Shown in pieces: positions 6,882-30,735 of a DNA stretch of 31,092 nt. Both the position numbers and the translations under genes were made by a program. The DNA comes from a virus: the UHGV virus genome UHGV-0204578, one strand, 5' to 3'. The notes beneath the pieces are model-generated. The model had not been told where the DNA came from. It was given only the letters and a program-made list of their open reading frames with translations, and did no database searches. Numbering within the stretch: the stretch's first letter is position 1; each line of letters starts with the position of its first letter.

Positions 6882-7532
6882 TCAGCGGCTGTCATTGCGC
6901 AGTCTGCGCTCCAGCTGCTGTTTGTCTTTTTTCACGCCACAGCGGGGATCGAGCTGTAACGCATGGTTGAGATGATTAAGGGCGGAAGCCGGATTACTTT
7001 CACTCAGGACAGCGCCAATCGCTTTATGCAGACGCGCCCGTGACTGGTCCGGCATATCCAGACCGTCTGTCAGCTCCAGCGTCTGCAGCAACAGATCGGC
7101 ATCAAAGCCGGTAGTGGCAAGCATTGCGCTCTGTGCCGCGTCTGCCATTTCCTCTGCCAGCACGGTCTGCACGTTGCGGTTACCCAGCGGCATCACCCAG
7201 CCATGACGCAGGGCATGACGCCCGATCTCCAGCGCCCCGGCATAATCTCCGGCATCAATACGCCACAGCATCACGTACATCAGCACGTCATCCTGTTGAG
7301 CGCCTCCGGCAGCCAGAACACCCTCCGCCCAGGCGGCGTACTTCGGCAGCAGCTCCACTTTGATTTCCGCTTTTTTGACCGTGGACTGAACACCCTTGAG
7401 ACGGCGTCGGTCTTCCGCCAGTTGCAGCAGCATCAGGTCATAGCCCGACGCGTGGCGAACGCTGCCGCCCTCACGGGCGGCCTGTTCAGCCTGAACGCGC
7501 AGGCGATGCTGCCGTGCGGGACTCAGGCTCAT
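6882..7532 (-). CDS. M: Terminase small (endonuclease) subunit gpM
   Basis: 216-aa ORF in P2 position between N and L; sequence resembles P2 gpM. Confidence 0.8.
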   Translation of the reverse strand: MSLSPARQHRLRVQAEQAAREGGSVRHASGYDLMLLQLAEDRRRLKGVQSTVKKAEIKVELLPKYAAWAEGVLAAGGAQQDDVLMYVMLWRIDAGDYAGALEIGRHALRHGWVMPLGNRNVQTVLAEEMADAAQSAMLATTGFDADLLLQTLELTDGLDMPDQSRARLHKAIGAVLSESNPASALNHLNHALQLDPRCGVKKDKQQLERRLRNDSR

Positions 7533-7535
7533 GGA

Positions 7536-8594
7536 TTACGCTCCGGTTTCTGCTGCGGCGGCGCTGAAGTCGCCAATCTGGATGTTTTCCACCAGTGCGG
7601 CGCAGCGGTAGTCCTCAACCACATAGGCTTCGTTAACGGATTCAAAGTTTTCAATCCGGTCACGTTTCGGGTTGTCGATAACTGAACGGCGGCGGGTATC
7701 CTCCTGCCAGTAGATGGACAGGTTATCCAGACGGGTGATCAGCAGCGCATTCGGCGGGAAGAACGGCGCACGCACGGCCTGCAGGCCACCCATGCGTTTC
7801 TGGCTGATGATCATATCTGCAGCCAGTTTTTCACTGTTCTCCTGCTCTTTGTTGACCAGCGGGAAATACTTGTCAGACAACAGTTCACGACCGCAAATCA
7901 CCACCAGATCGTCATCGTCCTGGTAGACCACGTCGATAAGCTCATTAACGGCATCCATCACCACGGCGTCCAGGTTGGCATATTCGCCACCTTTACCGAC
8001 TTTCACCGCGCCCGGTGTGGTTTCACCGCCCGTGGTGGTGCTGCCCATGACGTGATCCGGTGCATCCTCACGGATTTTCTGTAACCAGCCTTTGTTCACA
8101 TCCTGCAGCAGCGGGTTTTCGCTACGGTTGGAGGTTTTCGCACGCTTCACGCCGTTAAAGCCGATCATGATGCGGTCCAGTGCCTGACGTTTCACGATGG
8201 CGTCACGGATACGCACCTGGAAATCCTGAAACTTCGCCCACAGGTCCAGCTTCGCGTAGGTCAGTACCGTGTCAAAGTTGGTCTGCTCGCATTTGTATTC
8301 CACATCGACCATCAGCGTAGGATCGACAGGTTCACGCTCTTTCGCGGTGGTGTCAGTGGTTCCGGCAATGGTGCTGCCAACACCCAACCCCAGCAGCTGA
8401 CCGGACTGCTCAGTCACTGGCGTGACGTTAATCAGCGTCAGGAAAGCGGCGGACTGCTGGATCTGGTCTTCCAGCGTCTGCTGTACAGACGGCTCCACGG
8501 TGAACTTGCTGGACAGTTCTTCAACTGCCACACCGTTCAGACGCGCCAGCTGCTGCAGGTAAGCGTTAAAAGCAAAGCGGGTATTCTTCTTCAT
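7536..8594 (-). CDS. N: Major capsid protein gpN
   Basis: 352-aa ORF; clear resemblance to P2 gpN precursor. Confidence 0.9.
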   Translation of the reverse strand: MKKNTRFAFNAYLQQLARLNGVAVEELSSKFTVEPSVQQTLEDQIQQSAAFLTLINVTPVTEQSGQLLGLGVGSTIAGTTDTTAKEREPVDPTLMVDVEYKCEQTNFDTVLTYAKLDLWAKFQDFQVRIRDAIVKRQALDRIMIGFNGVKRAKTSNRSENPLLQDVNKGWLQKIREDAPDHVMGSTTTGGETTPGAVKVGKGGEYANLDAVVMDAVNELIDVVYQDDDDLVVICGRELLSDKYFPLVNKEQENSEKLAADMIISQKRMGGLQAVRAPFFPPNALLITRLDNLSIYWQEDTRRRSVIDNPKRDRIENFESVNEAYVVEDYRCAALVENIQIGDFSAAAAETGA

Positions 8595-8610: not shown

Positions 8611-9444
8611 TCAGCAATTGGTCAGAGTGTCAACGGGGGCGTTACCGCCTGTTGCACGCTGGCGGTAGTCCTGGCGGCTGTCTTCATGACTCAGCTTGTC
8701 CACCAGTTCGTTAAAGGCGGTTTGCTGTACCTGCAGGGCAGTCTCCAGCTCAGACAGGCGTTCTTCCTGCTCAGACAGGGATTTTTCGGTGCGTGCGCTC
8801 AGGTTCTGCTGCTCAGTGGCGACCAGCTCCACGGCCTTATGCACATCAGAGAACCGGGCGTCATCGGACTGCTCTTTTTTGGTAAACAGCGCCGTGACGC
8901 GGGCAAACAGGGACGGTTTGTCGTCCTGGATTTCTTCCAGTTCGATCACCGTTTCCTCTGCAGCGGTAAAGAGATTGGCAGGATTCTGCTTGCGGTTTGC
9001 CAGTGGGTTATGGGCTGCACTGGCGCTGAATGTCAGCATTTCAGTGCCCAGACTGGCAGGGTCATCAGTGGCAGCCAGGCCGACCAGGTAGGCTTTGCCC
9101 GTATCAGCGAACTTCGGGCTGACTTCCATAGAGGTGAATAATTTCTGGCCTTTTTTCACCAGTTCCACCAGGGACTCCGTTGGCTCAACGTCGGCATACA
9201 GCGCCATCTTGCCTGCCAGCGGACCTTCCGTGATTTCTTCAGCAAACAGCGCCGTCACCTTGCCGTAGCGGTTAAAGGTGCTGTCCGGCAGATAAGACTT
9301 GATGTGCTCAAGGTTAATCAGCGCGGTATACACCGCCGGGTTGTAGCTGGCTGCCATCTGTTCCAGCCATTCACGCTGGATTTCGCGTCCGTCGGTGGTG
9401 GCACCTTCCACCCCGATGCGAAAACGCTTTGCTTTCACTGTCAT
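8611..9444 (-). CDS. O: Capsid scaffolding protein gpO
   Basis: 277-aa ORF with acidic coiled-coil C-terminus; P2 gpO-like; first gene of the leftward late operon. Confidence 0.9.
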   Translation of the reverse strand: MTVKAKRFRIGVEGATTDGREIQREWLEQMAASYNPAVYTALINLEHIKSYLPDSTFNRYGKVTALFAEEITEGPLAGKMALYADVEPTESLVELVKKGQKLFTSMEVSPKFADTGKAYLVGLAATDDPASLGTEMLTFSASAAHNPLANRKQNPANLFTAAEETVIELEEIQDDKPSLFARVTALFTKKEQSDDARFSDVHKAVELVATEQQNLSARTEKSLSEQEERLSELETALQVQQTAFNELVDKLSHEDSRQDYRQRATGGNAPVDTLTNC

Positions 9445-9586: not shown

Positions 9587-11353
9587 ATGAACACCACACT
9601 GACACCCGCAGATCTCGATCCCCGTCGGCAGGCCATGCTGCTGTACTTTCAGGGATACCGCGTCGCCCGCATTGCTGAAATGCTGGGCGAGAAAGTTGCA
9701 ACTGTTCACAGCTGGAAAAAACGCGACAAGTGGGGTGACTATGGGCCGCTGGATCAGATGCAGCTCACCACCGCCGCACGCTACTGCCAGCTCATTATGA
9801 AGGAGCACAAAGAAGGGAAAGATTTCAAAGAAATTGACCTGCTGGCGCGCCAGTCGGAGCGCCACGCGCGGATCGGCAAGTTTAACAATGGCGGCAACGA
9901 AGCCGACTTAAACCCTAACGTCGCCAACCGCAACAAAGGCCCACGCCGTCAGCCGGAAAAGAATGTTTTCACCGATGAACAGATTGAGAAGCTGGAAGAA
10001 ATCTTCCATTCCTCCATGTTCAACTACCAGCGCCACTGGTGGGAAGCCGGAAAAACCAACCGCATCCGCAACCTGCTGAAGTCACGCCAGATCGGCGCGA
10101 CCTTCTATTTTGCCCGTGAAGCCCTGATTGACGCCCTGCTTACCGGACGTAACCAGATTTTCCTTTCTGCCAGTAAGGCTCAGGCCCACGTCTTTAAACA
10201 ATACATCATCGACTTCGCCAAAGAAGTCGAGGTGGAGCTGAAAGGCGATCCGATGGTGCTTCCTAACGGAGCCACGCTTTACTTCCTCGGCACCAATGCC
10301 CGCACGGCCCAGAGTTATCACGGCAACCTGTATCTGGATGAATATTTCTGGATACCGAAATTCCAGGAGCTGCGCAAAGTGGCTTCCGGGATGGCTATTC
10401 ACAAAAAATGGCGACAAACCTATTTTTCCACGCCATCCAGCCTGACCCACAGTGCTTATCCGTTCTGGTCCGGTGCGCTGTTCAACCGTGGACGCAACAA
10501 AGCTGACAAGGTGGACATCGACCTGTCCCACAGCAATCTGGCCCCCGGCCTGCTGTGCGCAGACGGGCAATACCGCCAGATAGTCACCGTGGAAGATGCG
10601 GTGCGCGGCGGCTGTAACCTGTTCGACCTCGACCAGCTACGCTTGGAGTACAGCCCGGACGAATACCAGAACCTGCTGATGTGCGAGTTCGTGGACGATC
10701 TCGCGTCCGTGTTCCCGCTCAGCGAACTGCAGGCGTGCATGGTGGACAGCTGGGAAGTCTGGACCGACTTTCATGCACTGGCCCTGCGCCCGTTTGGCTG
10801 GCGCGAAGTGTGGATCGGTTATGACCCGGCAAAAGGTACGCAGAACGGCGACAGCGCCGGATGCGTGGTGGTGGCACCGCCAGCCGTGCCAGGCGGTAAG
10901 TTTCGCATTCTTGAGCGTCACCAGTGGCGCGGGATGGACTTCCGCGCCCAGGCTGACGCCATCAAAAAACTGACCGAACAGTACAACGTGACCTATATCG
11001 GTATCGACTCAACCGGCGTCGGTCACGGGGTTTACGAGAACGTGAAAGCGTTCTTTCCTGCCGTCCGGGAGTTTGTCTACAACCCCAACGTTAAAAACGC
11101 CCTGGTACTCAAGGCCTACGACATTATCAGCCACCGCCGTCTGGAGTTTGACGCCGGACATACCGACATTGCGCAGTCATTCATGGCAATCCGTCGCGCC
11201 ACCACCGCCAGTGGCAACCGCCCGACCTACGAAGCCAGCCGCAGCGAAGAAGCCAGCCATGCCGATCTGGCATGGGCAACCATGCACGCACTGTTTAACG
11301 AACCGCTGCAGGGCGAGTCCGCCAATACCAGCAATATTGTGGAGATTTTTTGA
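9587..11353 (+). CDS. P: Terminase large (ATPase) subunit gpP
   Basis: 588-aa ORF (P2 P is about 590 aa) with strong P2 gpP-like N-terminus (..QAMLLYFQGYRVARIAEMLGEK..TVHSWKKRDKW). Confidence 0.9.
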   Translation: MNTTLTPADLDPRRQAMLLYFQGYRVARIAEMLGEKVATVHSWKKRDKWGDYGPLDQMQLTTAARYCQLIMKEHKEGKDFKEIDLLARQSERHARIGKFNNGGNEADLNPNVANRNKGPRRQPEKNVFTDEQIEKLEEIFHSSMFNYQRHWWEAGKTNRIRNLLKSRQIGATFYFAREALIDALLTGRNQIFLSASKAQAHVFKQYIIDFAKEVEVELKGDPMVLPNGATLYFLGTNARTAQSYHGNLYLDEYFWIPKFQELRKVASGMAIHKKWRQTYFSTPSSLTHSAYPFWSGALFNRGRNKADKVDIDLSHSNLAPGLLCADGQYRQIVTVEDAVRGGCNLFDLDQLRLEYSPDEYQNLLMCEFVDDLASVFPLSELQACMVDSWEVWTDFHALALRPFGWREVWIGYDPAKGTQNGDSAGCVVVAPPAVPGGKFRILERHQWRGMDFRAQADAIKKLTEQYNVTYIGIDSTGVGHGVYENVKAFFPAVREFVYNPNVKNALVLKAYDIISHRRLEFDAGHTDIAQSFMAIRRATTASGNRPTYEASRSEEASHADLAWATMHALFNEPLQGESANTSNIVEIF

Positions 11354-12393
11354 TGAAAGAACATATCGCGCCAGGCGAAACCGTAACTGCAGAAGAAACT
11401 AAAAAACCCGTTGCGGAGGCTTTCAGCTTCGGTGATCCCATTCCTGTACTGGACCGCCGCGAACTGCTGGACTATGTGGAATGCGTACAGATGGATCGCT
11501 GGTATGAGCCGCCCGTCAGCTTTGACGGACTGGCGCGCACCTTCCGCGCCGCCGTGCACCACAGCTCCCCGATCAGTGTTAAGCGTGACATTATCAGCAG
11601 TACCTATATTCCACATCGCCTTCTCAGCCAGCAGGCATTTACTCGTTTTGTGCAGGACTATCTGGTTTTTGGTAACGCCTACCTGGAGAAACGCACGAAC
11701 CGCTTTGGTGAAGTTATTTCGCTGGAGCCTGCACTGGCAAAATACACCCGACGCGGGCTTGACCTTGAAACATACTGGTTTGTGCAATACAGCCTGACGA
11801 CACAGCCGTATCAGTTCACAAAAGGTAACGTCTTCCACCTGATGGAGCCGGATATCAACCAGGAGATTTATGGTCTGCCGGGTTACCTTTCTGCCATTCC
11901 GTCAGCTCTGCTCAACGAATCCGCCACGCTGTTCCGCCGCAAGTATTACATTAACGGCAGCCACGCAGGCTTCATCATGTACATGACCGACGCCGCACAG
12001 AACCAGGAGGATGTGAACAACATCCGCAAGGCAATGAAAAGTGCTAAAGGACCGGGCAACTTCCGCAACCTGTTTATGTACTCGCCTAACGGCAAAAAAG
12101 ATGGCATTCAGATTATCCCGTTGTCGGAAGTCGCGGCGAAGGATGAATTTCTGAACATCAAGAACGTTAGCCGCGATGACATGATGGCGGCTCACCGCGT
12201 ACCGCCGCAAATGATGGGCATCATTCCCAACAACACTGGCGGCTTTGGGGATGTGGAAAAAGCGAGCCGTGTCTTCGTCCGCAATGAACTGATGCCCCTG
12301 CAAAAGCGACTGCAGGAGCTGAATGACTGGCTGGATGAAGAGGTTATCCGTTTTGAAGCCTATGACTTAGGACTTAAGGGCAAACGAAGCTGA
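11350..12393 (+). CDS. Q: Portal protein gpQ
   Basis: 347-aa ORF; extensive similarity to P2 gpQ (EAFSFGDPIPVLDRR..YVEC..WYEPPVSF...); ATGA overlap with P. Confidence 0.9.
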   Translation: MMKEHIAPGETVTAEETKKPVAEAFSFGDPIPVLDRRELLDYVECVQMDRWYEPPVSFDGLARTFRAAVHHSSPISVKRDIISSTYIPHRLLSQQAFTRFVQDYLVFGNAYLEKRTNRFGEVISLEPALAKYTRRGLDLETYWFVQYSLTTQPYQFTKGNVFHLMEPDINQEIYGLPGYLSAIPSALLNESATLFRRKYYINGSHAGFIMYMTDAAQNQEDVNNIRKAMKSAKGPGNFRNLFMYSPNGKKDGIQIIPLSEVAAKDEFLNIKNVSRDDMMAAHRVPPQMMGIIPNNTGGFGDVEKASRVFVRNELMPLQKRLQELNDWLDEEVIRFEAYDLGLKGKRS

Positions 12394-12465: not shown

Positions 12466-12559
12466 CCCTGACATCCCCCCCCCTCCACTAAATGAGGCCG
12501 CCAGCGGGCCAGAGGCTGTGCCGGATTTTGGCCATTTTACCCCGTTGCGCGCGCTCGTA

Positions 12560-12581
12560 TCCCCGCCACGCCTGCCCGCTT
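12560..12581. other. cos (cohesive-end packaging site) of the P2/186-like phage
   Basis: TCCCCGCCACGCCTGCCCGCTT; its reverse complement contains GGCGTGGCGGGGA, matching the P2-family 19-nt cohesive end (GGCGAGGCGGGGAAAGCAC) from memory. Lies just past Q, where cos sits in P2 and 186. The same 22-mer recurs at 24079..24100. Confidence 0.6.
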
Positions 12582-12611
12582 TATGTAGTGGTTTTCATGC
12601 ACCTGCATGAT

Positions 12612-12776: not shown

Positions 12777-13010
12777 TTAATGCAGCCAGCTGTCGTCTTC
12801 CCACACCTTCTGCATAATTTTCATCACTTGTTTTCTTTCTTCGTCCAGTTGCAGTCCGGTTAGTTCCACACCGTTAGAGCTACCTTTGCGAATGCGAATT
12901 ACCGTTTTGGGATACAGGGGGCGCAGATTGCGGTAAAGCTCGGATTCAAGGGCGTCCAGGGTAGACTGGCTAATCTTCTGCTCTTTATCGATCATTATTT
13001 CAATGCGCAT
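12777..13010 (-). CDS. dinI: DinI-like protein (77 aa)
   Basis: MRIEIMIDK...DALESEL...KVWEDDSWLH resembles E. coli DinI (MRIEVTIAK...ETWESADDWF). ATG at 13010 is preceded by GAGGTGA. The longer track ORF 12777..13082 is an upstream extension. Confidence 0.8.
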   Translation of the reverse strand: MRIEIMIDKEQKISQSTLDALESELYRNLRPLYPKTVIRIRKGSSNGVELTGLQLDEERKQVMKIMQKVWEDDSWLH

Positions 13011-13020
13011 AAAAGTCACC

Positions 13021-13209
13021 TCAGCTGATGACATCCATTGAGCGGTTGTATTCGTGGGTTCTGATTTTTGCCATGAGTTCATCAGTCAATTCAGAAACCC
13101 ACTGCAGAGCCAGCCCCTTCTCTTCATCACTACACTCACTAGCCGCTACAAGCTTAAGAAAAAAATCAATGCGCTGGAGCTTCAAAGACTCCAAAAAATA
13201 GTCCTGCAT
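13021..13209 (-). CDS. Small SOS-regulated protein (62 aa), possibly a 186 Tum-type antirepressor analogue
   Basis: ATG at 13209 with strong RBS (TAGGAGGAAAG-ATG), directly downstream of the LexA box and co-oriented with dinI. The 96-aa track ORF would contain the promoter and LexA box, so the 5' extension is rejected. The Tum analogy is positional only. Confidence 0.5.
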   Translation of the reverse strand: MQDYFLESLKLQRIDFFLKLVAASECSDEEKGLALQWVSELTDELMAKIRTHEYNRSMDVIS

Positions 13210-13362: not shown

Positions 13363-15777
13363 TTAATACAGGTTCCGCCACTGATCATCTTCCTGCAAAC
13401 GCTGGTTCCGATAGAAGATACGCAGGCCTGCTCCTGACGGAATACTGCCTCCGCGAAGGAGTAAATCGACCTCTTTCTCGCTGCCATCAAATCCTCTGGA
13501 CTTCAGCTCATACACGAGCTGCAGTCGCTGATGGTCTGTAATTCGCTGTTTGTAGTCTTTACGCCGTTTCGGTTTCACCAGGCGTAACCTTGCTGCCAGT
13601 TCCCGGCGCTCTTTTTTGCTCATACTGTGCAGGTAATCGTGCAACTCCTTGTCATCCATGCTGGTAATGTCCGTTCTGGGGTCCCCATTAGCTGATTTAT
13701 CTTTCTCCTGTTGGTTCAAATTTTCAGCAAGGGGACAGTTATTGCCACGAGTCCAAGGGGCGCAAGCGCCCTGGTCGGCTGCCGCCTCCTGAACGTCAAC
13801 GGCTTTACGAACCATTTTCCACTTCACTGCATGAGTGCAGATCTTGCCCTCTGCAATGGGTGACCAGATGCCATAAATACGAATGCCGTGATCGCCATAG
13901 GCGGTCGGCTCTTCGTTGATTTCATAAGCGGTTCTGATGAGGTGATATTTACGGGGAACCAGTACGCCGCCCTGCTTCATGATGTAGGTGGCAAAACAAC
14001 CAGCATCAGCAGCAGCCAGGATGGCATCAAGGCGCGGGTTATCCAGTACCGGCGCACCTGCTTTTTTGTCCCCCTGTTGCCTTGCCGCCTGACCAGCCAG
14101 CAATCGCAGTTCACGGTAAGCCTGACGCCCCGGAATGCCAAAGAAGCGGAATTGCTGAACACGATGCAAAGACGCCCAGGCATTCACGTATTCAGCGTTA
14201 TCACGCAGAGATTTACCCGTTTCCTTGCTGATCTCGCCAGCCAGACCACGCCCGTCAATGTTCTTACTGATGTATTTCGCTATGTAGCTTGTCGGCGTTC
14301 CTTTGCGCGGGTTAATCAGCTCAGACTTAAAGCGCGGCCCCGTGTTATTGCCCAGCTCCTCGCGGTCTTCACGGATAGCAAACTTACGCAACAATGCAGT
14401 AATGGCGCGGCGGTCTTTTTTGCGCATGAAACACAACAGGTGCCAGTGAACTGTGCCGTCGTGATGCGGCTCAGCCACCCGCACGCCATACCAGCGCAAC
14501 CCGGCTTTGTGCATCGCCTTACGAAATGCAGCAAACATACCGACCAGATAATCGCTGCTTTGTCTTACCGTCGCATTTGTCCAGGTCGGGTTGGGCCTGC
14601 CGTTATTTAGCGTGGAATGGAAACGTGACGGACAGGTGATGGTGTAGAAAACGGCGCAGTCACCGCGCATTTCCGCGATAAGCTCCAGACCTTTAACACA
14701 GGCCATCATCTCATTGCGGCGATGCGCAGGGTTGCTGCTGCTGGCGTTTACCACATCCTCCATGTCCAGCGTGTCGCCGTCTTCGTTCACCAGTTCATGA
14801 GAACGGAAAAACTCCAGCGACTTACGGCGCTGCTCACGTTTATGCAACACGGCTTCATAGCTGACATAGGGAGATGCTTTTTTGCTGACAAGGCAGACAG
14901 CACGCAACTGCTCTTCCCGCCATTCGCAACGCATCTTCCATAATTTCCGGTACCACCAGTCGGCGCACAACATACGCGCCAGCGAACCCGGAATGAGTTC
15001 ATAGGGCACGGGTTTGCGGCGGTTTCTTTTCCGGCGGAGTTGCTCAAACGCAGGCGGGATAACATCCAGTCGCAGGGTTTCTGCTGCCACCTTTTCCCAT
15101 GTCTTGCGGATTTCTTCCGGCTTAACATCATCGGAGGCGTACAAATCACCACAAGCGGCATCAAGACACATGCTCATATGCGCAGCGACAAGGGTGGACA
15201 GGCGTTTCACCTGATCCTGACTCATTTCAGGCAGGATAAGCAGGCCGTCCAGCCCTTCATGGCTTGCCATAAAACGAAAAGATGCAGATAGCTGGCTGTC
15301 GCGTACATGCTCCAGTCGTTCCAGACATGGCTTAATCGTCTCACGTAAATAGCGGGAATAAGCCTTTGGCTTGCCCAGGCTGCTGAAGTATTCAATACGT
15401 TGCATCAGCGGCTTGCTGATATGGGAAGGCTGGGCGTTGACGTCCGCCAGAATGACCATATCCGGATTAAAACGCTGCTGCTCATGCGCCAGCTTTGCCC
15501 GACTAATGAGCTTATCCTGCTCCATTTCGCGCTGGACAGGATCACGGGATTCATTAAAGAAATAACGCTCCCAGACCTGATCACTCAGTGCCTCTCGGCG
15601 CAGCTGTTCCTGCTCGTTATCGGCAGCGTACAGAGTGATCAGGTTTGAAAGCGTAGAAACCGGCGCAACTTCCGCCGGGTCCAGATAAGGGTTAATGGCC
15701 TTTTTCGGGCTGTTCCATGAGAACGATGCGGCAGCCTCGTTAAAGCCGCAGCAGTTGTTCATATCGGCATGGCTCAT
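13363..15777 (-). CDS. A: Replication initiation protein A (rolling-circle HUH endonuclease, P2 gpA family)
   Basis: 804-aa ORF with HUH-like motif ([12 protein letters not shown]) and a paired-tyrosine motif (YIAKYISK) typical of P2 gpA/phiX174-type initiators. Confidence 0.85.
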
Positions 15778-19127: not shown

Positions 19128-19760
19128 ATGATACAGGTAAAAGCTGGCGAGAATACAGGGGGAAGAGAGGCTATCCATAGACTAATGGCAGCCTATGATT
19201 TCAAGTCCAGACAGCAACTTTGCGATCACTTAGGCGCATCAAAAAGCACTATGGCAAACAGATACTTAAGAGATAGCTTTCCCGCAGAGTGGGTGATTCA
19301 GTGCGCCTTGGAAACAGGAGTTTCTTTACTGTGGCTAACCACCGGACAAGGCGAACCAGGTTCAAACATTGACCCTAAAAAAAATATCAATTCTGTGAAC
19401 TCCAGCAGGGTTAAACCTCTTTCTGAGCTTGTATCTCCTGAAATTGACAAGGCAACTCTCAACGGTGGTTTATTGGTCGATGCTGGAAAAGCAATCATTG
19501 ATAGCAGCATACTCCCCTCAGACTCAAGCAACCTGCTGCTGGTGAGTACTTCTGGTGATTCTTATTTAATAGATCGCAACCAAACACCACCAGTAAATGG
19601 TACGTGGTTAGTGGACATCGACGGGATAAAAAGCATTGTAAAATTGACACGACTCCCGGGAAACAGATTAGTAGTGCATCAGGATGATTCATCGTTTGAG
19701 TGCGAACTGGATGACATTGAGGTAATAGGTCGCGCACTGAAAATCATTAAGAGCCTTTGA
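19128..19760 (+). CDS. cI: CI-type immunity repressor (186 CI-like)
   Basis: 210-aa ORF with N-terminal HTH-like segment, divergent from apl and immediately upstream of int, the 186 cI-int arrangement. Confidence 0.7.
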   Translation: MIQVKAGENTGGREAIHRLMAAYDFKSRQQLCDHLGASKSTMANRYLRDSFPAEWVIQCALETGVSLLWLTTGQGEPGSNIDPKKNINSVNSSRVKPLSELVSPEIDKATLNGGLLVDAGKAIIDSSILPSDSSNLLLVSTSGDSYLIDRNQTPPVNGTWLVDIDGIKSIVKLTRLPGNRLVVHQDDSSFECELDDIEVIGRALKIIKSL

Positions 19761-19761
19761 T

Positions 19762-20787
19762 ATGACCATCAGAAAACAGCCGAACGGAAAGTGGTTATGT
19801 GAATGCTACCCAAACGGGAGAGATGGCAAACGCGTACGCAAACAATTTGCGACGAAAGGCGAAGCCATTGCGTTTGAGAATTTCACCATGGATGAGGTAA
19901 ACAAGAAACCTTGGCTGGGAGAAAAGGAAGATCGGCGACAACTGTCAGAAGTGATTGAGCAATGGTATTCCCTGTACGGTCAGACACTCGCTGACCCTAA
20001 GCGATTAATGGCTAAGTTAAAAATCATTTGTAATGGACTTGGCGATCCCATCGCTTCTGAATTGACAGCAGGTGATTTCACAAAGTACCGGGAAGCCAGA
20101 TTAAAAGGTGAGGTCAAAAACGAAGATGGCGTGCTCATGTCACCGGTTAAGCCCAGAACGGTGAACCTTGAACAGCGTAACCTATCCTCAGTTTTTGGCA
20201 CACTGAAAAAGCTGGGACATTGGTCTGCACCCAACCCCCTCGCCGGTCTGCCAACTTTCAAAATTGCAGAAGGTGAACTGGCGTTCCTTGCTGCTGATGA
20301 AATCAAACGCCTGCTTGACGCATGTGCTGAATCTCAAAGTCCCAGTCTGCTAATGATTGCCAAGATTTGCCTGGCTACCGGGGCAAGATGGAGCGAAGCC
20401 GAAAACCTGCAAGGTAACCAGATATCAAAGTATCGAATTACCTATACCAAAACAAAAGGAAAGAAAAACCGAACTGTTCCTATTTCTCAGGAACTGTATG
20501 AAGAATTACCCAAAAACAGAGGAAAGTTATTCACACCATGCCGAAAGGCTTTTGAGCGTGCGGTAAAACGAGCTGGAATTGAACTACCTGAAGGTCAATG
20601 TACCCACGTTCTGCGCCACACTTTCGCCAGCCACTTTATGATGAACGGCGGAAACATTTTGGTATTGAGGGATATTTTAGGACACGCTGATATTAAAATG
20701 ACCATGATTTATGCCCATTTTGCACCTGATCATCTGGAAGATGCCGTTACCAAAAATCCACTTCATAACCTCAACTGGCATCGCTAA
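19762..20787 (+). CDS. int: Tyrosine integrase (P2/186 Int family)
   Basis: 341-aa ORF with C-terminal catalytic region HVLRHTFASHFMMNGGNILVLRDILGHADIKMTMIYAH (R..H..R..Y signature); reads toward the att core. Confidence 0.9.
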   Translation: MTIRKQPNGKWLCECYPNGRDGKRVRKQFATKGEAIAFENFTMDEVNKKPWLGEKEDRRQLSEVIEQWYSLYGQTLADPKRLMAKLKIICNGLGDPIASELTAGDFTKYREARLKGEVKNEDGVLMSPVKPRTVNLEQRNLSSVFGTLKKLGHWSAPNPLAGLPTFKIAEGELAFLAADEIKRLLDACAESQSPSLLMIAKICLATGARWSEAENLQGNQISKYRITYTKTKGKKNRTVPISQELYEELPKNRGKLFTPCRKAFERAVKRAGIELPEGQCTHVLRHTFASHFMMNGGNILVLRDILGHADIKMTMIYAHFAPDHLEDAVTKNPLHNLNWHR

Positions 20788-20904
20788 TAAATGGCGGCAT
20801 TTTGGCGGCAGAACACTAAAAACAAGTAAAACAAGCAAATACAGACTAACACTAACATCATGATTTAAAATAAAAAAATATGATTTTGTTAGTATAAAAA
20901 TGGT

Positions 20905-20949
20905 ATGTAGGAATTTCGGACGCGGGTTCAACTCCCGCCAGCTCCACCA
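20905..20949 (+). other. ssrA: att core: 45-nt copy of the 3' end of the tmRNA gene ssrA (fragment only)
   Basis: ATGTAGGAATTTCGGACGCGGGTTCAACTCCCGCCAGCTCCACCA matches the E. coli ssrA 3' terminus from memory. Sequence upstream is integrase coding/AT-rich arm DNA, so the full gene is not here. Confidence 0.75.
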
Positions 20950-20982
20950 AATGATGATCCGGATACGTCCGGTGAAGTACAG

Positions 20983-21017
20983 AAAGCCCGCATGGCACAA
21001 GCCCTGCGGGCTTTTTT
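20983..21017 (+). terminator. Intrinsic terminator downstream of the ssrA 3' end
   Basis: GC hairpin gcccgca...tgcgggc followed by TTTTTT. Confidence 0.55.
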
Positions 21018-21060
21018 GTGTCTGACGTTGTCCGAGAACATCCGGCTAAATCCGGTGATT

Positions 21061-21114
21061 ATTGGTATACGTTTAGGTATACGGTAGGATGTATACCTAA
21101 AAACGTATACCAAT
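21061..21114. promoter_or_regulatory. Inverted repeat of a 22-bp motif (ATTGGTATACGTTTAGGTATAC) upstream of the satellite integrase; candidate Int arm sites or int operator
   Basis: Arms at 21061..21082 and 21091..21114 are near-perfect reverse complements; a third copy (one mismatch) lies at 30515..30536. Confidence 0.5.
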
Positions 21115-21133
21115 TCATGAAGGAGCGGCCACA

Positions 21134-22327
21134 GTGGCACGGACAACACGCCCCCTTACCAACACCGAAGTTCTGCGCGCTAAGGCGTTAGAGAAGGATC
21201 TAACGCTGCACGATGGCGACGGGCTTTTCCTGATAGTGAAAACTAGTGGCAAAAAGCTCTGGCGCTTTCGCTATCAACGTCCGGTAACAAAGCAGCGGAC
21301 AATGATGGGGCTCGGTGCCTTCCCCGCCCTATCGCTTGCTGATGCCCGAGGATTAAGAGCGGATTACCTTGCCTTATTAGCCAACGGACTCGACCCGCAA
21401 ATTCAAACTGAAGTTGCAGAGGAACAGCAGCAAATAGCACTGGACAGTATTTTTTCAACGGTCGCCGCTAACTGGTTCCAGCTCAAAAGCAAAAGCGTTA
21501 CCCCTGATTACGCAAAAGACATTTGGCGCTCACTGGAGAAAGATGTATTCCCTGCCATCGGTGAGATCCCCGTTCAGCAAATCAAAGCACGGACACTGGT
21601 TGAAGCTCTTGAGCCAATCAAAGCTCGTGGGGCGCTTGAGACTGTACGTCGACTGGTGCAGCGCATTAACGAGATAATGATTTATGCCGTAAACACTGGC
21701 CTGATTGATGCTAATCCAGCATCAGGTGTTGGGATGGCCTTTGAGAAGCCCAAAAAACAAAACATGCCGACGCTTCGGCCAGAAGAGTTACCAAAACTCA
21801 TGCGTTCTTTGGTGATGTCAAATCTCTCTGTTTCGACTCGCTGTTTAATTGAATGGCAACTCCTGACGCTTGTGCGCCCTTCTGAGGCCTCCGGTGCTCG
21901 TTGGGCAGAAATCGATCTCGATGCAAAGCTTTGGACTATTCCAGCCGAACGGATGAAGGCGAAACGTGAGCACATAGTTCCTCTCTCAACTCAGGCATTA
22001 GAGATTCTCGAAGTGATGAAACCAATCAGCGCTCACCGTGAACATGTTTTTCCCAGTAGGAATGATCCAAAACAATCCATGAATAGCCAAACAGCTAATG
22101 CAGCTTTGAAGCGTATAGGATATGGAGGAAAATTAGTTGCACACGGTTTACGATCTATTGCAAGTACTACATTGAATGAAGCGGGCTTTAATTCAGATGT
22201 GATAGAAGCGGCATTAGCTCATACAGATAAAAATGAGGTAAGAAGAGCATATAACCGCTCTATCTATTTAAAGCAAAGAATAGGCATGATGGAATGGTGG
22301 GGTGAAAAAGTTTATAATAAAAACTGA
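21134..22327 (+). CDS. int: P4-family integrase (IntA-like tyrosine recombinase)
   Basis: 397-aa ORF, GTG start with AAGGAG 8 nt upstream; N-terminus MARTTRPLTNTEV...DGDGLFLIVKTSGKKLWRFRY typical of P4/CP4-57 integrases; sits about 185 bp after the ssrA 3' end as intA does in E. coli K-12. Confidence 0.9.
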   Translation: MARTTRPLTNTEVLRAKALEKDLTLHDGDGLFLIVKTSGKKLWRFRYQRPVTKQRTMMGLGAFPALSLADARGLRADYLALLANGLDPQIQTEVAEEQQQIALDSIFSTVAANWFQLKSKSVTPDYAKDIWRSLEKDVFPAIGEIPVQQIKARTLVEALEPIKARGALETVRRLVQRINEIMIYAVNTGLIDANPASGVGMAFEKPKKQNMPTLRPEELPKLMRSLVMSNLSVSTRCLIEWQLLTLVRPSEASGARWAEIDLDAKLWTIPAERMKAKREHIVPLSTQALEILEVMKPISAHREHVFPSRNDPKQSMNSQTANAALKRIGYGGKLVAHGLRSIASTTLNEAGFNSDVIEAALAHTDKNEVRRAYNRSIYLKQRIGMMEWWGEKVYNKN

Positions 22328-22366
22328 AAAAAAAATAAAAGCTCATTCTTATGAGCTTTTATTTTC
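22328..22366. terminator. Bidirectional intrinsic terminator between int and the cargo operon
   Basis: Hairpin aaaagctcat-tctt-atgagctttt flanked by an A-run on one side and a T-run on the other. Confidence 0.65.
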
Positions 22367-22964
22367 CTGCATTACCTTTCGAATTATCAGCATCCTGTTT
22401 ATTTTGAAAAGTCATAAAGGTATTATACCAACTAGAAACACGGAATATAGCAAGAACAGCTGCTAATGCAGAGAATACTGAGTAAATAAATATAAAGTAA
22501 GCAAAAAAACTAAATATTAATAACGCATACTTATAGAAAACACCTAAATAATAATACATAAAAGCATTATTTATGAGAATACTACTATAGGCCTTGGTAA
22601 CCAAGGCCGTAATAATAGTTAGTAATTGCAACAATATAAAATGGACAAAAGTTGCATTGACTGACATATAAGGAGAATATTCTACTTCCCCACTTTCACT
22701 TTTTTCATCACCAGTTATTATTTTTTTAAAGGCCTCATCACCAATAGCTATCCACATAGCAAAACCACCTAATGAAAAGCCCAGAAGGTTCGGCATCAAT
22801 GACAGGATATCATTCCACCACCCCTGATGAGACCAAGATGGATAAAGAATCACTGTCATTAAAAAAGCACACCAAAAATAGCGACTTTTAAACACAGCCC
22901 CAGCGCCACCATAGATTTTCCAGTATCTAGCCAATGCACTGGTTGATTCTTTTTCTTCACTCAT
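22359..22964 (-). CDS. Uncharacterised integral membrane protein (201 aa, about 4 TM helices); downstream gene of cargo cassette
   Basis: Hydrophobic segments YFWCAFLMTVILYPSW, ILSLMPNLLGFSLGGFAMWIAIG, VHFILLQLLTIITALV, YALLIFSFFAYFIFIYSVFSALAAVLAIF; start overlaps the upstream gene stop (TAATG); AT-rich. Confidence 0.7.
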   Translation of the reverse strand: MSEEKESTSALARYWKIYGGAGAVFKSRYFWCAFLMTVILYPSWSHQGWWNDILSLMPNLLGFSLGGFAMWIAIGDEAFKKIITGDEKSESGEVEYSPYMSVNATFVHFILLQLLTIITALVTKAYSSILINNAFMYYYLGVFYKYALLIFSFFAYFIFIYSVFSALAAVLAIFRVSSWYNTFMTFQNKQDADNSKGNAGK

Positions 22965-23893
22965 TACTTTCTCAGAAGCCTCTTAAATTCATCTGCTAAT
23001 GATTTTGCCCTTAATAACAATAGCTCAGAAACCGATGTTACGTCAGAATCATATGGTTCGACCCTTTGAAGTGGTACGTCACTTGAGGCATGAACCTCTA
23101 CTAATCCCGCCTCATTAATCCTGCGTATACTAACTTCACCATTTCTCGAAGCAATAAGAGCATCCTGTTTTAACTCACCATCAGGTTTAATTTCCTGACC
23201 TCGCTCAGATTTATATGTTTTATCCTCTTCAATAACCCCAATACGCTTGAAGCGCTTTTGCATAACATTTTCTGCAGAAGCGAGATCATCCGGATTAGGA
23301 CGTCGAGTGACCATATTTATACACGTAATACCTTTTAAAGAAAGCATACGTTCTACACTATCTGGCTCAGTCAATATTGTAACATTAACCTTTCCAAATT
23401 TCTCTATAATTCTCTCGTGAGAAAATATCCCATTCAGAAAGCTTTCTATTTGTCTTGGTGTAAGATGCCGGCTCTTGTCCTGCATTTCGTAAACTAAAAG
23501 ATGACTTGCGGGTAGAAAAACAAAAGAGAATCTAGCTACATTTGGTTTTAAATTATCAGGTATATTTATTCTTTCCTTTTCCTCATCTGAAGCTATATCT
23601 TTCTTTACGATATCGAACCAGTCGCCATTAACGTCAATATCTGTATACTTTAGAATTTCCCCCTCAAAAGGTTCACTAATTACCTGACCTTTCTTATAAG
23701 GATAAAAATATGATAAAGTTGCGAATGAGTCTCCTCTTAAATTAACATTGCTCGCATTTTTTCTTGCCATCCTGAATAACTCGACATACTTTTCTGGCGA
23801 GTGGGGGTGCATGGATATATTCACAGCCCCGTAAGTTAATTTTTTTGCCCTTGCCATTTTTATCTTTGTTCCCTTATTTCGTGAAAGAATCAT
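22964..23893 (-). CDS. Uncharacterised soluble protein (309 aa; 297 aa if start is ATG at 23857); upstream gene of cargo cassette
   Basis: Intact AT-rich ORF with no TM segments and no catalytic motif I recognise (no Walker A, no GS..DxD nucleotidyltransferase motif, no HxH); translationally coupled to the membrane protein gene. Confidence 0.7.
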   Translation of the reverse strand: MILSRNKGTKIKMARAKKLTYGAVNISMHPHSPEKYVELFRMARKNASNVNLRGDSFATLSYFYPYKKGQVISEPFEGEILKYTDIDVNGDWFDIVKKDIASDEEKERINIPDNLKPNVARFSFVFLPASHLLVYEMQDKSRHLTPRQIESFLNGIFSHERIIEKFGKVNVTILTEPDSVERMLSLKGITCINMVTRRPNPDDLASAENVMQKRFKRIGVIEEDKTYKSERGQEIKPDGELKQDALIASRNGEVSIRRINEAGLVEVHASSDVPLQRVEPYDSDVTSVSELLLLRAKSLADEFKRLLRK

Positions 23894-24078
23894 ATATACA
23901 TGAAAGGCTTAGGGAAAACTATGTCTTAACGCACACCATCTAATAGCCAAAGGAAATAAAAATACAATTCATTATTCAAAATGGGAATATTATTTCCTCC
24001 ACGGATAATGCTCATTGGTTCCACTACCAGATTCGTAAAAATTAAAAAAACAACATCCAAGAACAGCGCGCAATGCTC

Positions 24079-24100
24079 TCCCCGCCACGCCTGCCCGCTT
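24079..24100. other. cos site of the P4-type satellite, identical 22-mer to the helper cos
   Basis: TCCCCGCCACGCCTGCCCGCTT identical to 12560..12581; flanks also similar (ttttaatgcaggtgcatga versus ttttcatgcacctgcatga). Located between cargo and psu, where P4 cos lies. Confidence 0.6.
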
Positions 24101-24264
24101 CTTGGGGCGCTTTTAATGCAGGTGCATGAAGTGGCTCAGGCCGCGCCGCGACTGGCGCTGGTCGGGAGTACAGGAGCGGGAAAACGCATGCAAAACCATG
24201 CACCCTTTGGATGCATGGCTTAATTCGGGAAAAATGGCGGGAATTACGAGGATTTTTTGACAGG

Positions 24265-24831
24265 TTACGGCGCGGCCAGTTCGGCGCGTCGACGGGTGTA
24301 AATCATGCTCTGTGCAGGGGTGAATTTTTCACGATTATCATCCCGCGAAGGCGCGTCAGGCCTGTATCCGATGGCCGTTAAAATATCGCTATCCTGTGCC
24401 GAATAATTAATTTCATTTCCTGCGGCCAGCCAGACGGAAAGAGCTTCTCGCAGGTATGCTACTGAACGGTCAAGCGCACGGTTTTTTATCATCGTGGGCT
24501 GGTTCTTAATTCCCATCAGCTCGGGTGCCAGTGCGGCGGCCAGCTCCGCGCCGTTCTGCTGCATAAAATCGTACAGCCGGTTACGGATGCTGATGCGCTG
24601 CACCTCCTCATGCGAGGAAATGTAGCGACCGGCGGCCTGATTAATCTCCCATTTTTTTACGTCAATAATATCTCGCAGCGTCTGTAATCTGCGGGAACCT
24701 GATGCGTTGTCATCCAGCAATAATTCCTGATATTCCTGTTCTGCGGCGGTCAGTTCGGCTTTACAGTTCAGCCACGCCGTTTTGTTCGTCTGACAGGCAT
24801 CGAACGCCTGCTGTAAGGTCAGGGTGGTCAC
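24265..24831 (-). CDS. psu: Psu (polarity suppression / capsid decoration protein)
   Basis: 188-aa ORF (GTG start) with strong similarity to P4 Psu (..LQQAFD.CQ.NK.AWL..K.EL.AAEQEY..NQAAGRYI.SHE.VQ.ISIR.RL.DFMQQ..). Confidence 0.85.
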   Translation of the reverse strand: MTTLTLQQAFDACQTNKTAWLNCKAELTAAEQEYQELLLDDNASGSRRLQTLRDIIDVKKWEINQAAGRYISSHEEVQRISIRNRLYDFMQQNGAELAAALAPELMGIKNQPTMIKNRALDRSVAYLREALSVWLAAGNEINYSAQDSDILTAIGYRPDAPSRDDNREKFTPAQSMIYTRRRAELAAP

Positions 24832-24847: not shown

Positions 24848-25093
24848 TTAATGGTGGAACGGTGAGCTGTAGCAGCTTTTTACCCGGCGGGGTGTAACGG
24901 GTACTGTCGGCACCGGTGCGGGTTTCTCATCGACGACCGGGGAACGGATCACCTCAAAGATGGACTCATGCGTTTTGAATGTCGCCGAGCAGTGCACATT
25001 CTGGCACTGGAGGTAACTCTCTTTGACGCTGTCAGACATATAGCGGCTGGTGCGAACGTGGGCCGCTGTGCGACAGAAAGGGCAGCGCATCAT
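24848..25093 (-). CDS. delta: Delta/Ogr-family zinc-finger late-gene activator
   Basis: MMRCPFCRTAAHVRTSRYMSD...YLQCQNVHCSATF mirrors P2 Ogr (CPLCQHAAHARTSRY...HQCQNVNCSATF). Confidence 0.85.
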   Translation of the reverse strand: MMRCPFCRTAAHVRTSRYMSDSVKESYLQCQNVHCSATFKTHESIFEVIRSPVVDEKPAPVPTVPVTPRRVKSCYSSPFHH

Positions 25094-25827
25094 GACAGTA
25101 ACCCTCGTGCTTTCAGATCGGCTTCACGTTCCTGCATTTTTTCCTGCCAGACTTTTCGCTGACCGGGCGTGGCCGCAACGTCATGCTCCATATGTGGCAG
25201 CGTGGAGGCCGCCAGCCCTGTTTTAAAAAGCACTGGTTCATCAGTCAGACGGATATTGCAGTCCTTCACCGCCTGCTCAAGCCATGATTTCACCTTATGC
25301 ATAACGGCATGCTCTGGTTCGACATAGCCCTGATGCCCGATGGTGTTGGCAAGCGGATTTTCTTTAACCAATATGCTGAGTTTCATTGCTCTAACGAGTG
25401 CGCCGCAGGTTTCACGTAGGGCGGCATCGAGTTCATGCTCTGCATACTGGCTGAGTACGCCGTGATGCGCCTGACGGTATGTTCTGGCCGTGCTGTCACA
25501 GGCTCCCCGAAGGCTGTCCAGCTCGAAAGACAGCACCTCAGCCATGTTGTCACATTCCAGTGCCAGCTCCCGCCGTGCCACGCGCGCAATATGGCGTTGT
25601 TTCAGCTCGTCGGTAATGACAGCACCACCGGCACGAAAGGCGGTGCGCCATGCACCGGAATCATTGCCGTTTTCCTGCTCCAGTTCAGTTTTTTGCGTTT
25701 TCACCTGGCTGATGGCCGTCGTGGTTTCGTCCATGCGTCGGGCATTGGTCAGATGTGCTTCTCTGGCCGTCTCAAGACTTTCTATTGCGGGTTTAAGGTA
25801 GTCGGGAATAACAGCGGTCTGAGTCAT
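25090..25827 (-). CDS. sid: Sid (capsid size determination external scaffold)
   Basis: 245 aa from ATG at 25827 (GAGGAGA RBS); position and length as P4 sid, upstream of delta and psu; helical, Gln/Glu-rich. The track ORF start at 25893 is an upstream extension. Confidence 0.75.
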   Translation of the reverse strand: MTQTAVIPDYLKPAIESLETAREAHLTNARRMDETTTAISQVKTQKTELEQENGNDSGAWRTAFRAGGAVITDELKQRHIARVARRELALECDNMAEVLSFELDSLRGACDSTARTYRQAHHGVLSQYAEHELDAALRETCGALVRAMKLSILVKENPLANTIGHQGYVEPEHAVMHKVKSWLEQAVKDCNIRLTDEPVLFKTGLAASTLPHMEHDVAATPGQRKVWQEKMQEREADLKARGLLS

Positions 25828-25899
25828 GTCGGGTCTCCTCTTCGTTTCAATCTGAGGAGATTCTGCCGCGCCGGACACAACAACACGATTCATTGCCGT

Positions 25900-26634: not shown

Positions 26635-26761
26635 TGATGATCGCTCAGCAAACAGCCCCTTTTTCTGGCTTGCTTCTTTTCGCCATTTCCAGGTATAGTT
26701 TTCCCGCTGTCGCAAAATCGACAGCCGGGCGTGGAAACCCGAGCAACTCGAAGGCGACACC

Positions 26762-26785
26762 AGACGCGCCATGCGTCTTTTTTTG
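26762..26785 (+). terminator. Intrinsic terminator inside an untranslated leader
   Basis: agacgc-gccat-gcgtct hairpin followed by TTTTTTT, in the roughly 400-bp gap between alpA and the next RBS-bearing start. Confidence 0.55.
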
Positions 26786-27032
26786 TGTCGCAACTAACGC
26801 CACAGAGCGCCAGATAATGGCGTGGTGTGCGGATCGTCGTGCAGACGTCACTTTGTGTCTCCTGTCCGCAATCGCATATCATGCTGTCATGTCAATGGTA
26901 GCTCAGGCGGGGCAGCCCTCGGGCTGGCCGGTATTCTTCGAGGCCGGTATTTCCACCCCCGTCTGGGCTATCGCCACTGAGCGTGGAAACTCCGGCGATA
27001 GCAATAATTTGCTACTCGAAGGAGGTTGCCTT

Positions 27033-30168: not shown

Positions 30169-30455
30169 GGTGAACAATCCACTGCTCACCCTTCACCGTA
30201 TATTCACCCTGTATCACCATGAAATTATTGATAAAAAACCAGAGGTGAACAGTGTGAACAGTAAAACCTGAAAAAACTTTTTATCACCCCTCACATCGCC
30301 TGAGCGGACGGTTCCAGAACGAGCACAAATCACAAAGGTGAAGAGTCGACTGTTCACTCTTCACCAACCATTCACCACTTATCATTATGATATTAAAAAG
30401 AAAAAAAGAGAGGTGAACAGTGTGAACAGTTAAATGCAAAAAAACTTTTTTTTAA
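30169..30455. repeat. Two tandem ~168-bp repeats, each carrying TGTTCACC-type iterons (crr-like cis replication region)
   Basis: Units starting near 30169 and 30337 are clearly homologous; GAGGTGAACAGTGTGAACAGT occurs in both (30242 and 30410), with several TTCACC/GGTGAA half-iterons. Confidence 0.65.
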
Positions 30456-30536: not shown

Positions 30537-30735
30537 AACTGAAAGTTGAATTGATAAATATTCAATAAAATCAAAATATTGAGAAAAATTTTCAGACTCC
30601 GCCAGCCCAATCATGATTGGACGGTGTAAGGACAACACCAACAAAAACAGGAAGTTAGAAGTCTCAGCAAAACACCGACCAGACGGTGAGGAGACATAAA
30701 AGGATACGCAAAGGAGCCGCGGCTCCTGGTAACAT

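Follow-up and report, generated by a model that had tools for sequence, protein, structure and literature searches.

Sequence comparison of putative P2-family cos sites in a prophage and an adjacent P4-like satellite points to generic packaging compatibility

The cos site of the satellite described here very probably expresses generic compatibility with P2-family packaging and not adaptation to the lineage of the neighbouring prophage, because the private signature of that helper lineage is absent from the satellite and the 22-bp sequence common to both elements is family-wide. Both sites in the window (the whole stretch of 31,092 nucleotides that was analysed) are in all likelihood bona fide P2-family cos, a known kind of feature, given their ungapped match to the annotated cos of P2, 186, and P4 and the presence of the 55-bp core. 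The satellite carries the cos of the family whose terminase must be borrowed. An earlier note had proposed that it is adapted to the terminase of the helper lineage; the P2-family nature of the site stood, but the lineage-specific fit did not, the helper's private class being absent.

Two cos sites in the window

The 22-mer TCCCCGCCACGCCTGCCCGCTT is present in exactly two copies in the window, both on the plus strand, one in the prophage (12560-12581) and one in the satellite (24079-24100, corresponding to cos positions -9 to +13), and the identical core described in the earlier note is thus an exact match. No further match with up to 3 mismatches was found in the window, and none appeared in 100 dinucleotide-preserving shuffles, where the chance expectation is 0. 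The flanks are also related over about 70 bp, as had been claimed: 51 of 71 positions are identical from -45 to +26 around the predicted nick, and 29 of the 49 flank positions outside the 22-mer agree between satellite and prophage. On the minus strand of the window, which corresponds to the orientation of P2, the shared 22-mer reads AAGCGGGCA/GGCGTGGCGGGGA, the slash marking the predicted nick.

The 55-bp core of the satellite cos spans 24073-24127. It consists of a cohesive-end segment (24073-24091, minus strand, read as 5'-GGCGTGGCGGGGAGAGCAT-3') and a conserved arm of 36 bp (24092-24127, minus strand), in which we located the dyad ATGCA-CC-TGCAT (24116-24127), the A-tract TAAAA (24111-24115), and AAGCGGGCA (24092-24100). 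Nicks are predicted by homology between 24092 and 24091 on the minus strand and between 24072 and 24073 on the plus strand. A GCGCGCA block (24066-24072, plus strand) lies directly 5' of the predicted plus-strand nick and mirrors the GCGGGCA located 5' of the minus-strand nick. The span to which the earlier note had drawn attention, 24060-24135, covers this entire site. The core of the prophage cos spans 12554-12608, with a cohesive-end segment (12554-12572, minus strand, read as 5'-GGCGTGGCGGGGATACGAG-3'), a 36-bp arm (12573-12608, minus strand; ATGCAGGTGCATGAAAACCACTACATAAAGCGGGCA), and a GCGCGCG block (12547-12553, plus strand) directly 5' of the predicted plus-strand nick; here homology places the nicks between 12553 and 12554 and between 12572 and 12573. 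At both sites we infer nick positions by homology to annotated cos.

Correspondence to the cos sites of P2, 186, and P4

Cohesive ends of 19 nt are annotated for P2 and for 186, and the sequence recorded for P4 opens with the 19 nt of P2. Both sites of the window align without gaps to the annotated cos of the three reference elements, the correspondence that the earlier note had anticipated, with the start of the overhang in the same register, and the ungapped alignment runs 36 bp leftward through the dyad ATGCA-N2-TGCAT and the A-tract. The 55-bp P2-family cos core goes back to Ziermann and Calendar 1990, as cited in PMC5694545, and a core cos signal common to P2 and P4 is textbook knowledge (PMC9122126).

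The resemblance of the reverse complement to a P2-family cohesive end, to which the earlier note had pointed, was borne out. The reverse complement of the 22-mer holds GGCGTGGCGGGGA, which equals the first 13 nt of the 19-nt cohesive end of 186 (GGCGTGGCGGGGAAAGCAT) and differs by one base from the cohesive end of P2 and P4 (GGCGAGGCGGGGAAAGCAC). Over 19 nt, the ungapped satellite segment agrees with 186 at 18 positions and with P2/P4 at 16, and the prophage segment agrees with 186 at 14, the first 13 being identical. Written with slashes at the segment boundaries, the junctions read AAGCGGGCG/GGCGAGGCGGGGAAAGCAC/CGCGCGC in P4, AAGCGGGCG/GGCGAGGCGGGGAAAGCAC/TGCGCGC in P2, AAGTGGGCA/GGCGTGGCGGGGAAAGCAT/TGCGCGC in 186, AAGCGGGCA/GGCGTGGCGGGGATACGAG/CGCGCGC in the prophage, and AAGCGGGCA/GGCGTGGCGGGGAGAGCAT/TGCGCGC in the satellite.

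Both sites have a 19-nt cohesive end that is homologous to the P2-family pattern GGCG(A/T)GGCGGGGAAAGCA(C/T), together with an arm of 36 bp that contains (A)TGCA-N2-TGCAT, an A-tract, and AAGCGGGCA; the prophage cos adjoins portal gene Q and the satellite cos adjoins psu. Architecture and register are those of P2, 186, and P4, in which a 36-bp arm with TGCAT-AAAA and AAGCGGGC(A/G) is combined with a 19-nt 5' overhang that opens with GGCG(A/T)GGCGGGGA and is followed by GCGCGC, and in which phages have cos past portal gene Q and the satellite has it past psu. Helper and satellite have no homologous region other than cos, as is also true of P2 and P4. There are also differences. The satellite overhang has G at +14 (GAGCAT) whereas 186 and P2/P4 have A, and the prophage departs from all three in its overhang tail, TACGAG, and in its arm, which reads GAAAACCACTACA.

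The prophage and the satellite

The right part of a P2-family prophage occupies positions 1-20787. Before cos it encodes, in order, the small terminase subunit (gpM homologue; 6882-7532, minus strand; Pfam Phage_term_smal, E = 1.4e-40), capsid (7536-8594, minus strand), scaffold (8611-9444, minus strand), the large terminase subunit (gpP homologue; 9587-11353, plus strand; Pfam Terminase_6N, Terminase_6C, and Terminase_5), and the portal protein (gpQ homologue; 11350-12393, plus strand; Pfam Phage_portal). The cos site lies about 160 bp past the portal stop codon, between gene Q and the early genes, and is followed by a DinI/Tum-like gene (12777-13082, minus strand) and gpA (13363-15777, minus strand). 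A 186-type CI repressor (19128-19760, plus strand) and the prophage integrase (19762-20787, plus strand) complete the element.

The prophage shares about 95% sequence identity with members of the Fels-2/SopEPhi/RE2010 group found in Klebsiella and E. coli. Around cos, identity to Fels-2, RE2010, and SopEPhi reaches 96%, and the CI repressor, the DinI/Tum-like gene, and integration at an ssrA fragment are further points of likeness to the Fels-2/SopEPhi group. Its gpM shares 49% identity with both P2 gpM and 186 R, and its gpP shares 63% with the corresponding proteins of P2 and 186, while the P2 and 186 terminases are 70% (gpM) and 88% (gpP) identical to each other. Judged by these identities, the terminase of the prophage lineage is diverged from those of P2 and 186. 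Many phages resemble the prophage only from about 12545 rightwards, the similarity starting abruptly at cos.

A complete P4-like satellite extends from 21134 onward. Its genes follow the order int, cargo, cos, psu, delta, sid, and alpha primase, with ash and DUF5375 also present; genes for capsid, tail, and terminase are absent. The P4-type integrase (21134-22327, plus strand) adjoins an ssrA 3' fragment (20861-20949). Beyond cos lie psu (24265-24831, minus strand; Pfam Psu, E = 2.3e-89), delta (24848-25093, minus strand; Pfam Ogr_Delta), and a sid homologue (25090-25893, minus strand) that is 62% identical to P4 Sid by tblastn; identity to P4 is 63% for Psu and 83% for alpha. The cos site is found about 175-180 bp past the psu stop codon, and the same spacing was recovered in 77 other satellites among the matches listed. 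A P4-type immunity RNA (26693-26978) was recognized by three Rfam matches (c4-a1b1 targets, isrK-like element, and C4 antisense RNA), all above gathering thresholds, and two direct repeats of 114 nt, 77% identical and 168 nt apart (30169-30450), resemble the crr of P4. A search for the satellite attR gave no clear repeat of at least 16 nt inside the window; each end of the satellite has a nearby copy of an 11-nt arm-type repeat, ATTGGTATACG (at 21061 and 30515), and a degenerate stretch resembling ssrA lies near 30640.

The element shares int, psu, delta, sid, alpA-region genes, alpha, and a defence-type hotspot between int and cos with the P4-like family (Moura de Sousa and Rocha 2021; Rousset et al. 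2022). It differs from P4 in its delta, a single Ogr-like domain of 81 aa where P4 delta has 166 aa, and from the known family in its cargo. The latter (22359-23893, minus strand) is of low GC content (about 35%) and comprises a DUF4747 protein of 309 aa and a 201-aa protein without a Pfam match, a pair that we regard as candidate anti-phage cargo. The same pair accompanies the identical integrase in many genomes, and an essentially identical satellite occupies ssrA in E. coli NCTC10973.

Proposed mechanism of packaging

In the mechanism that we propose, a P2-type terminase (gpM and gpP) would nick a 19-nt segment on both strands and leave 5' cohesive ends. The satellite has neither terminase nor capsid genes; once replicated, its circular DNA would depend on the terminase of a helper for cleavage at the satellite cos and would then be packaged into capsids made small by Sid. 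The dyad and the A-tract, from their conservation, form the likely binding region of the terminase.

The sequence GCG(G/C)GC(A/G) stands directly 5' of each predicted nick, on its own strand, in P2, P4, 186, and both sites of the window (12547-12553 and 12573-12579 in the prophage, 24066-24072 and 24092-24098 in the satellite). The first nick is preceded by GCGGGC(A/G) and the second, on the other strand, by GCGCGC(A/G), so that the two half-sites are 19 nt apart and related by two-fold symmetry. Such a pair would fit a dimeric nuclease, a role suggested by the symmetry of the sequence. Cutting of the satellite cos by the neighbour's terminase is plausible, since half-sites and dyad are intact in both elements. 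The predicted cut sites, together with the confirmed packaging signals, are useful for annotation and for predicting the ends of packaged genomes.

Dyads of the Ogr/Delta activator type (TGT-N12-ACA) were also detected, in late-promoter regions of the helper (9523 and 3615) and upstream of sid (25900); about 0.2 such dyads would be expected by chance in the regions inspected.

Conservation of the 22-mer in the family

We surveyed cos sites in loci from IMG/VR, which are phylogenetically non-independent, with up to 120 or 80 loci covered per scan. An open-pattern sample, in which variable positions were left free, provided 107 phage and 13 satellite sites; a Psu-anchored sample provided 77 satellites; and a portal-anchored sample, consisting entirely of the helper lineage (portal identity of at least 85%), provided 77 phages, in each case among the matches listed. 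The pooled profile reads TGCA.cTGCAT.AAAA.Cg...cat.AAGCGGGCAGGCGtGGCGGGGA.AgcA.tGCGCGC, and both sites of the window agree with it at every position that is at least 90% conserved. The terminal GCGCGC (+21 to +26) is conserved in both protein-anchored samples.

Among the matches listed, the exact 22-mer is carried by 68 of 77 helper-lineage phages, 48 of 76 satellites, and 27 of 71 phages of other lineages; because cos in the protein-anchored samples was located through approximate copies of the 22-mer, with up to 4-5 mismatches allowed, its apparent conservation is somewhat inflated. The positions common to the two sites of the window are essentially the conserved positions of the family. From these alignments, the 22-mer is the conserved centre of the 55-bp family core and spans the predicted first nick. 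Because it is widespread in the family, its identity in a satellite and a phage is the rule and not the signature of a pair. Consequently, the earlier use of the 22-bp identity as evidence of lineage adaptation fails, the same centre being common to many unrelated P2-family phages and satellites. Sharing of the cos core marks membership in the P2/P4 packaging system and not pairing with the neighbouring prophage.

Classes of cos in phages and satellites

Outside the conserved centre, the helper lineage has a cos of its own. Its overhang, GGCGTGGCGGGGATACGAG, was found in 74 of the 77 portal-anchored relatives and a TACGAG-type tail in 76 (among the matches listed), and its arm carries the signature ATGCAGGTGCATGAAAACCACTACA. 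The arm of the prophage is the commonest in the lineage, being present in 22 of 77 relatives and one base off in 19 more among the matches listed. The satellite lacks this signature, with overhang GGCGTGGCGGGGAGAGCAT and arm ATGCACCTGCATTAAAAGCGCCCC: where the helper class has TACGAG followed by C and the arm TGCATGAAAACCACTACA, the satellite has GAGCAT followed by T and the arm TGCATTAAAAGCGCCCCA.

Over the 55-bp core, the satellite is identical to the adjacent prophage at 42 positions, to 186 at 48, and to phages of the L486 type, another P2-family lineage, at 52; for comparison, the established pairs P4-P2 and P4-186 agree at 48 and 47 positions. When the 107 phage cos listed were ordered by similarity to that of the satellite, the adjacent prophage came 83rd, and its class was the least similar of those represented there. 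Satellite and prophage differ at the class-specific positions (-19 to -11 of the arm and +14 to +20 of the overhang), where the satellite matches a different P2-family lineage. Helper specificity, if it resides in cos at all, would sit at these positions and not in the conserved core.

Distribution among satellites revealed the same separation. A pattern search of IMG/VR for the satellite-type arm joined to a TACGA tail gave no match, while the satellite-type arm part alone was present in 57 of 80 satellites among the matches listed. The TACGAG class was not found among the 77 Psu-anchored satellites listed, the majority class being the overhang GGCGTGGCGGGGAGAGCAT of our satellite (G at +14 in 60 of 77 among the matches listed). 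Five satellites (L291, L296, L307, L308, and L059) combine the GAGCAT overhang with an arm that resembles the Fels-2-like one (TGCATGAAAACTACCCTATAAAGCGGGCA), which could reflect partial convergence on, or recombination with, the Fels-2-like lineage.

Phages with a cos close to that of the satellite also exist. A minority of 186/ENT4-like phages have its exact overhang and a near-identical arm, and phages with this overhang carry a packaging module of the 186/SEN1/ENT4 type. Such loci in IMG/VR include L429, L437, L438, L486, L508, L511, L516, and L521. Several phages with the GAGCAT overhang have a gpA 83% identical to that of the window prophage and a different packaging module. A candidate rule, under which only satellites would have G at position 14 of the overhang (8 of 13 satellites and 0 of 107 phages), was refuted by at least 19 phage-borne sites with the same overhang.

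A more speculative reading, which we hold to be rather doubtful, is that P2-family cos form discrete classes that track terminase lineages. On this reading, and if the class-specific positions matter for recognition, the Fels-2/SopEPhi-like lineage may escape P4-type piracy during packaging despite its frequent position beside satellites at ssrA, and the class of cos could become a predictor, readable from sequence, of which helper can be exploited.

Tandem arrangement at ssrA and alternative explanations

The 3' fragment of the tmRNA gene (ssrA; 20861-20949) lies between the two integrase genes, which together delimit 19762-22327, and the best explanation for the adjacency of the elements is that ssrA is the target of both integrases. 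In S. Typhimurium 4/74, SopEPhi is documented with a P4-like element at its side (PMC7999457); unlike that remnant, the satellite studied here looks complete, with int, cos, psu, delta, sid, CI RNA, and alpha all intact. Tandem arrays of prophage and P4-like satellite at ssrA were recovered in at least seven complete E. coli genomes and at least three IMG/VR contigs. In the 11 arrays examined, the window included, the phage always had the TACGAG class and the satellite either GAGCAT (seven arrays) or the P4-type AAGCAC (four arrays); none of the 11 satellites adjoining the helper lineage had a TACGAG-class cos. In the four AAGCAC arrays the 22-mer is not identical between neighbours. The satellite of locus L538, which likewise adjoins a phage of the helper lineage, shows a pair of cos-like sites separated by 312 bp (near 14166 and 14478), one intact and of the GAGCAT class, the other degenerate (GGCGAGGCGGGGAAAGCTC, then TGTACGC).

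Judged by identity of the integrase protein, the same satellite recurs in 183 indexed blocks of the collection. Of the 10 places listed among these 183, nine adjoin smpB or bapABCD and one an unrelated prophage, and a P2-like prophage was found beside none of the 10. Comparison of IMG/VR genome identifiers between satellite and phage loci gave no overlap among the matches listed, and a scan of genome contigs with GGCGNGGCGGGGANNNNNNNGCGCGC for co-resident pairs returned at least 120 matches, most of them chance occurrences in high-GC genomes.

These patterns leave room for a possible, though less probable, reading in which adjacency is a by-product of the common use of ssrA by both integrases, the satellite cos is unusable for the Fels-2-like terminase, and help in fact comes from a different P2-family phage, of the GAGCAT or 186-like class, that is resident elsewhere or superinfecting. 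The tmRNA fragment between the elements agrees with it, as do the occurrence of the same satellite alone at smpB-ssrA or beside bapABCD in other genomes, the phages with identical overhang and near-identical arm, the low identity of the helper gpM to P2 gpM and 186 R relative to that between those two, and the lack of the TACGAG class in every surveyed satellite among the matches listed. However, the conserved positions, both half-sites, and the dyad are all present in both sites, and arrays that join the helper lineage to P4-like satellites are found repeatedly in E. coli and IMG/VR. Divergence in the core is moreover tolerated: P4 is packaged by both P2 and 186, from which its core departs at seven and eight of 55 positions.

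Generic compatibility with the family, our preferred reading, must also be weighed against the proposal that the satellite cos was shaped for the terminase of the adjacent lineage, with the 22-bp identity as its signature. We consider this unlikely. The two elements are adjacent, have dyads of the activator type at the late promoters of both, share all family-invariant positions, and agree in T at +5 and A at -1, in contrast to the A and G of P2 and P4; but both bases occur at these positions also in 186 and in most other classes. The positions private to the helper have not been copied, the helper ranks low among the listed phage cos, other phages match the satellite core at 52 of 55 positions against 42 for the helper, and the satellite arm with a TACGA tail is absent from IMG/VR. 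Furthermore, the same satellite is mostly without a P2-like neighbour in the places listed, and satellites that do adjoin the helper lineage carry two differing classes of cos.

A recent exchange at cos between the neighbours, by recombination or gene conversion, is a highly improbable source of the 22-bp identity. In its favour, int-cargo modules that are identical and have the int-side flank TGCGCGCTGTT in common are joined to differing psu-side arms, and the similarity of many phages to the prophage begins at cos. Against it, the 22-mer is present in most unrelated satellites and phages whatever their neighbourhood, and identity stops at the edges of the family-conserved block and not at an arbitrary tract boundary.

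On these alignments, cos itself behaves as a recombination junction between satellite modules, and recombination at cos has been proposed by Rousset et al. A case of such a module junction is offered by loci L525-L534, with cos near locus position 12956, when compared with 24060-24130 of the window.
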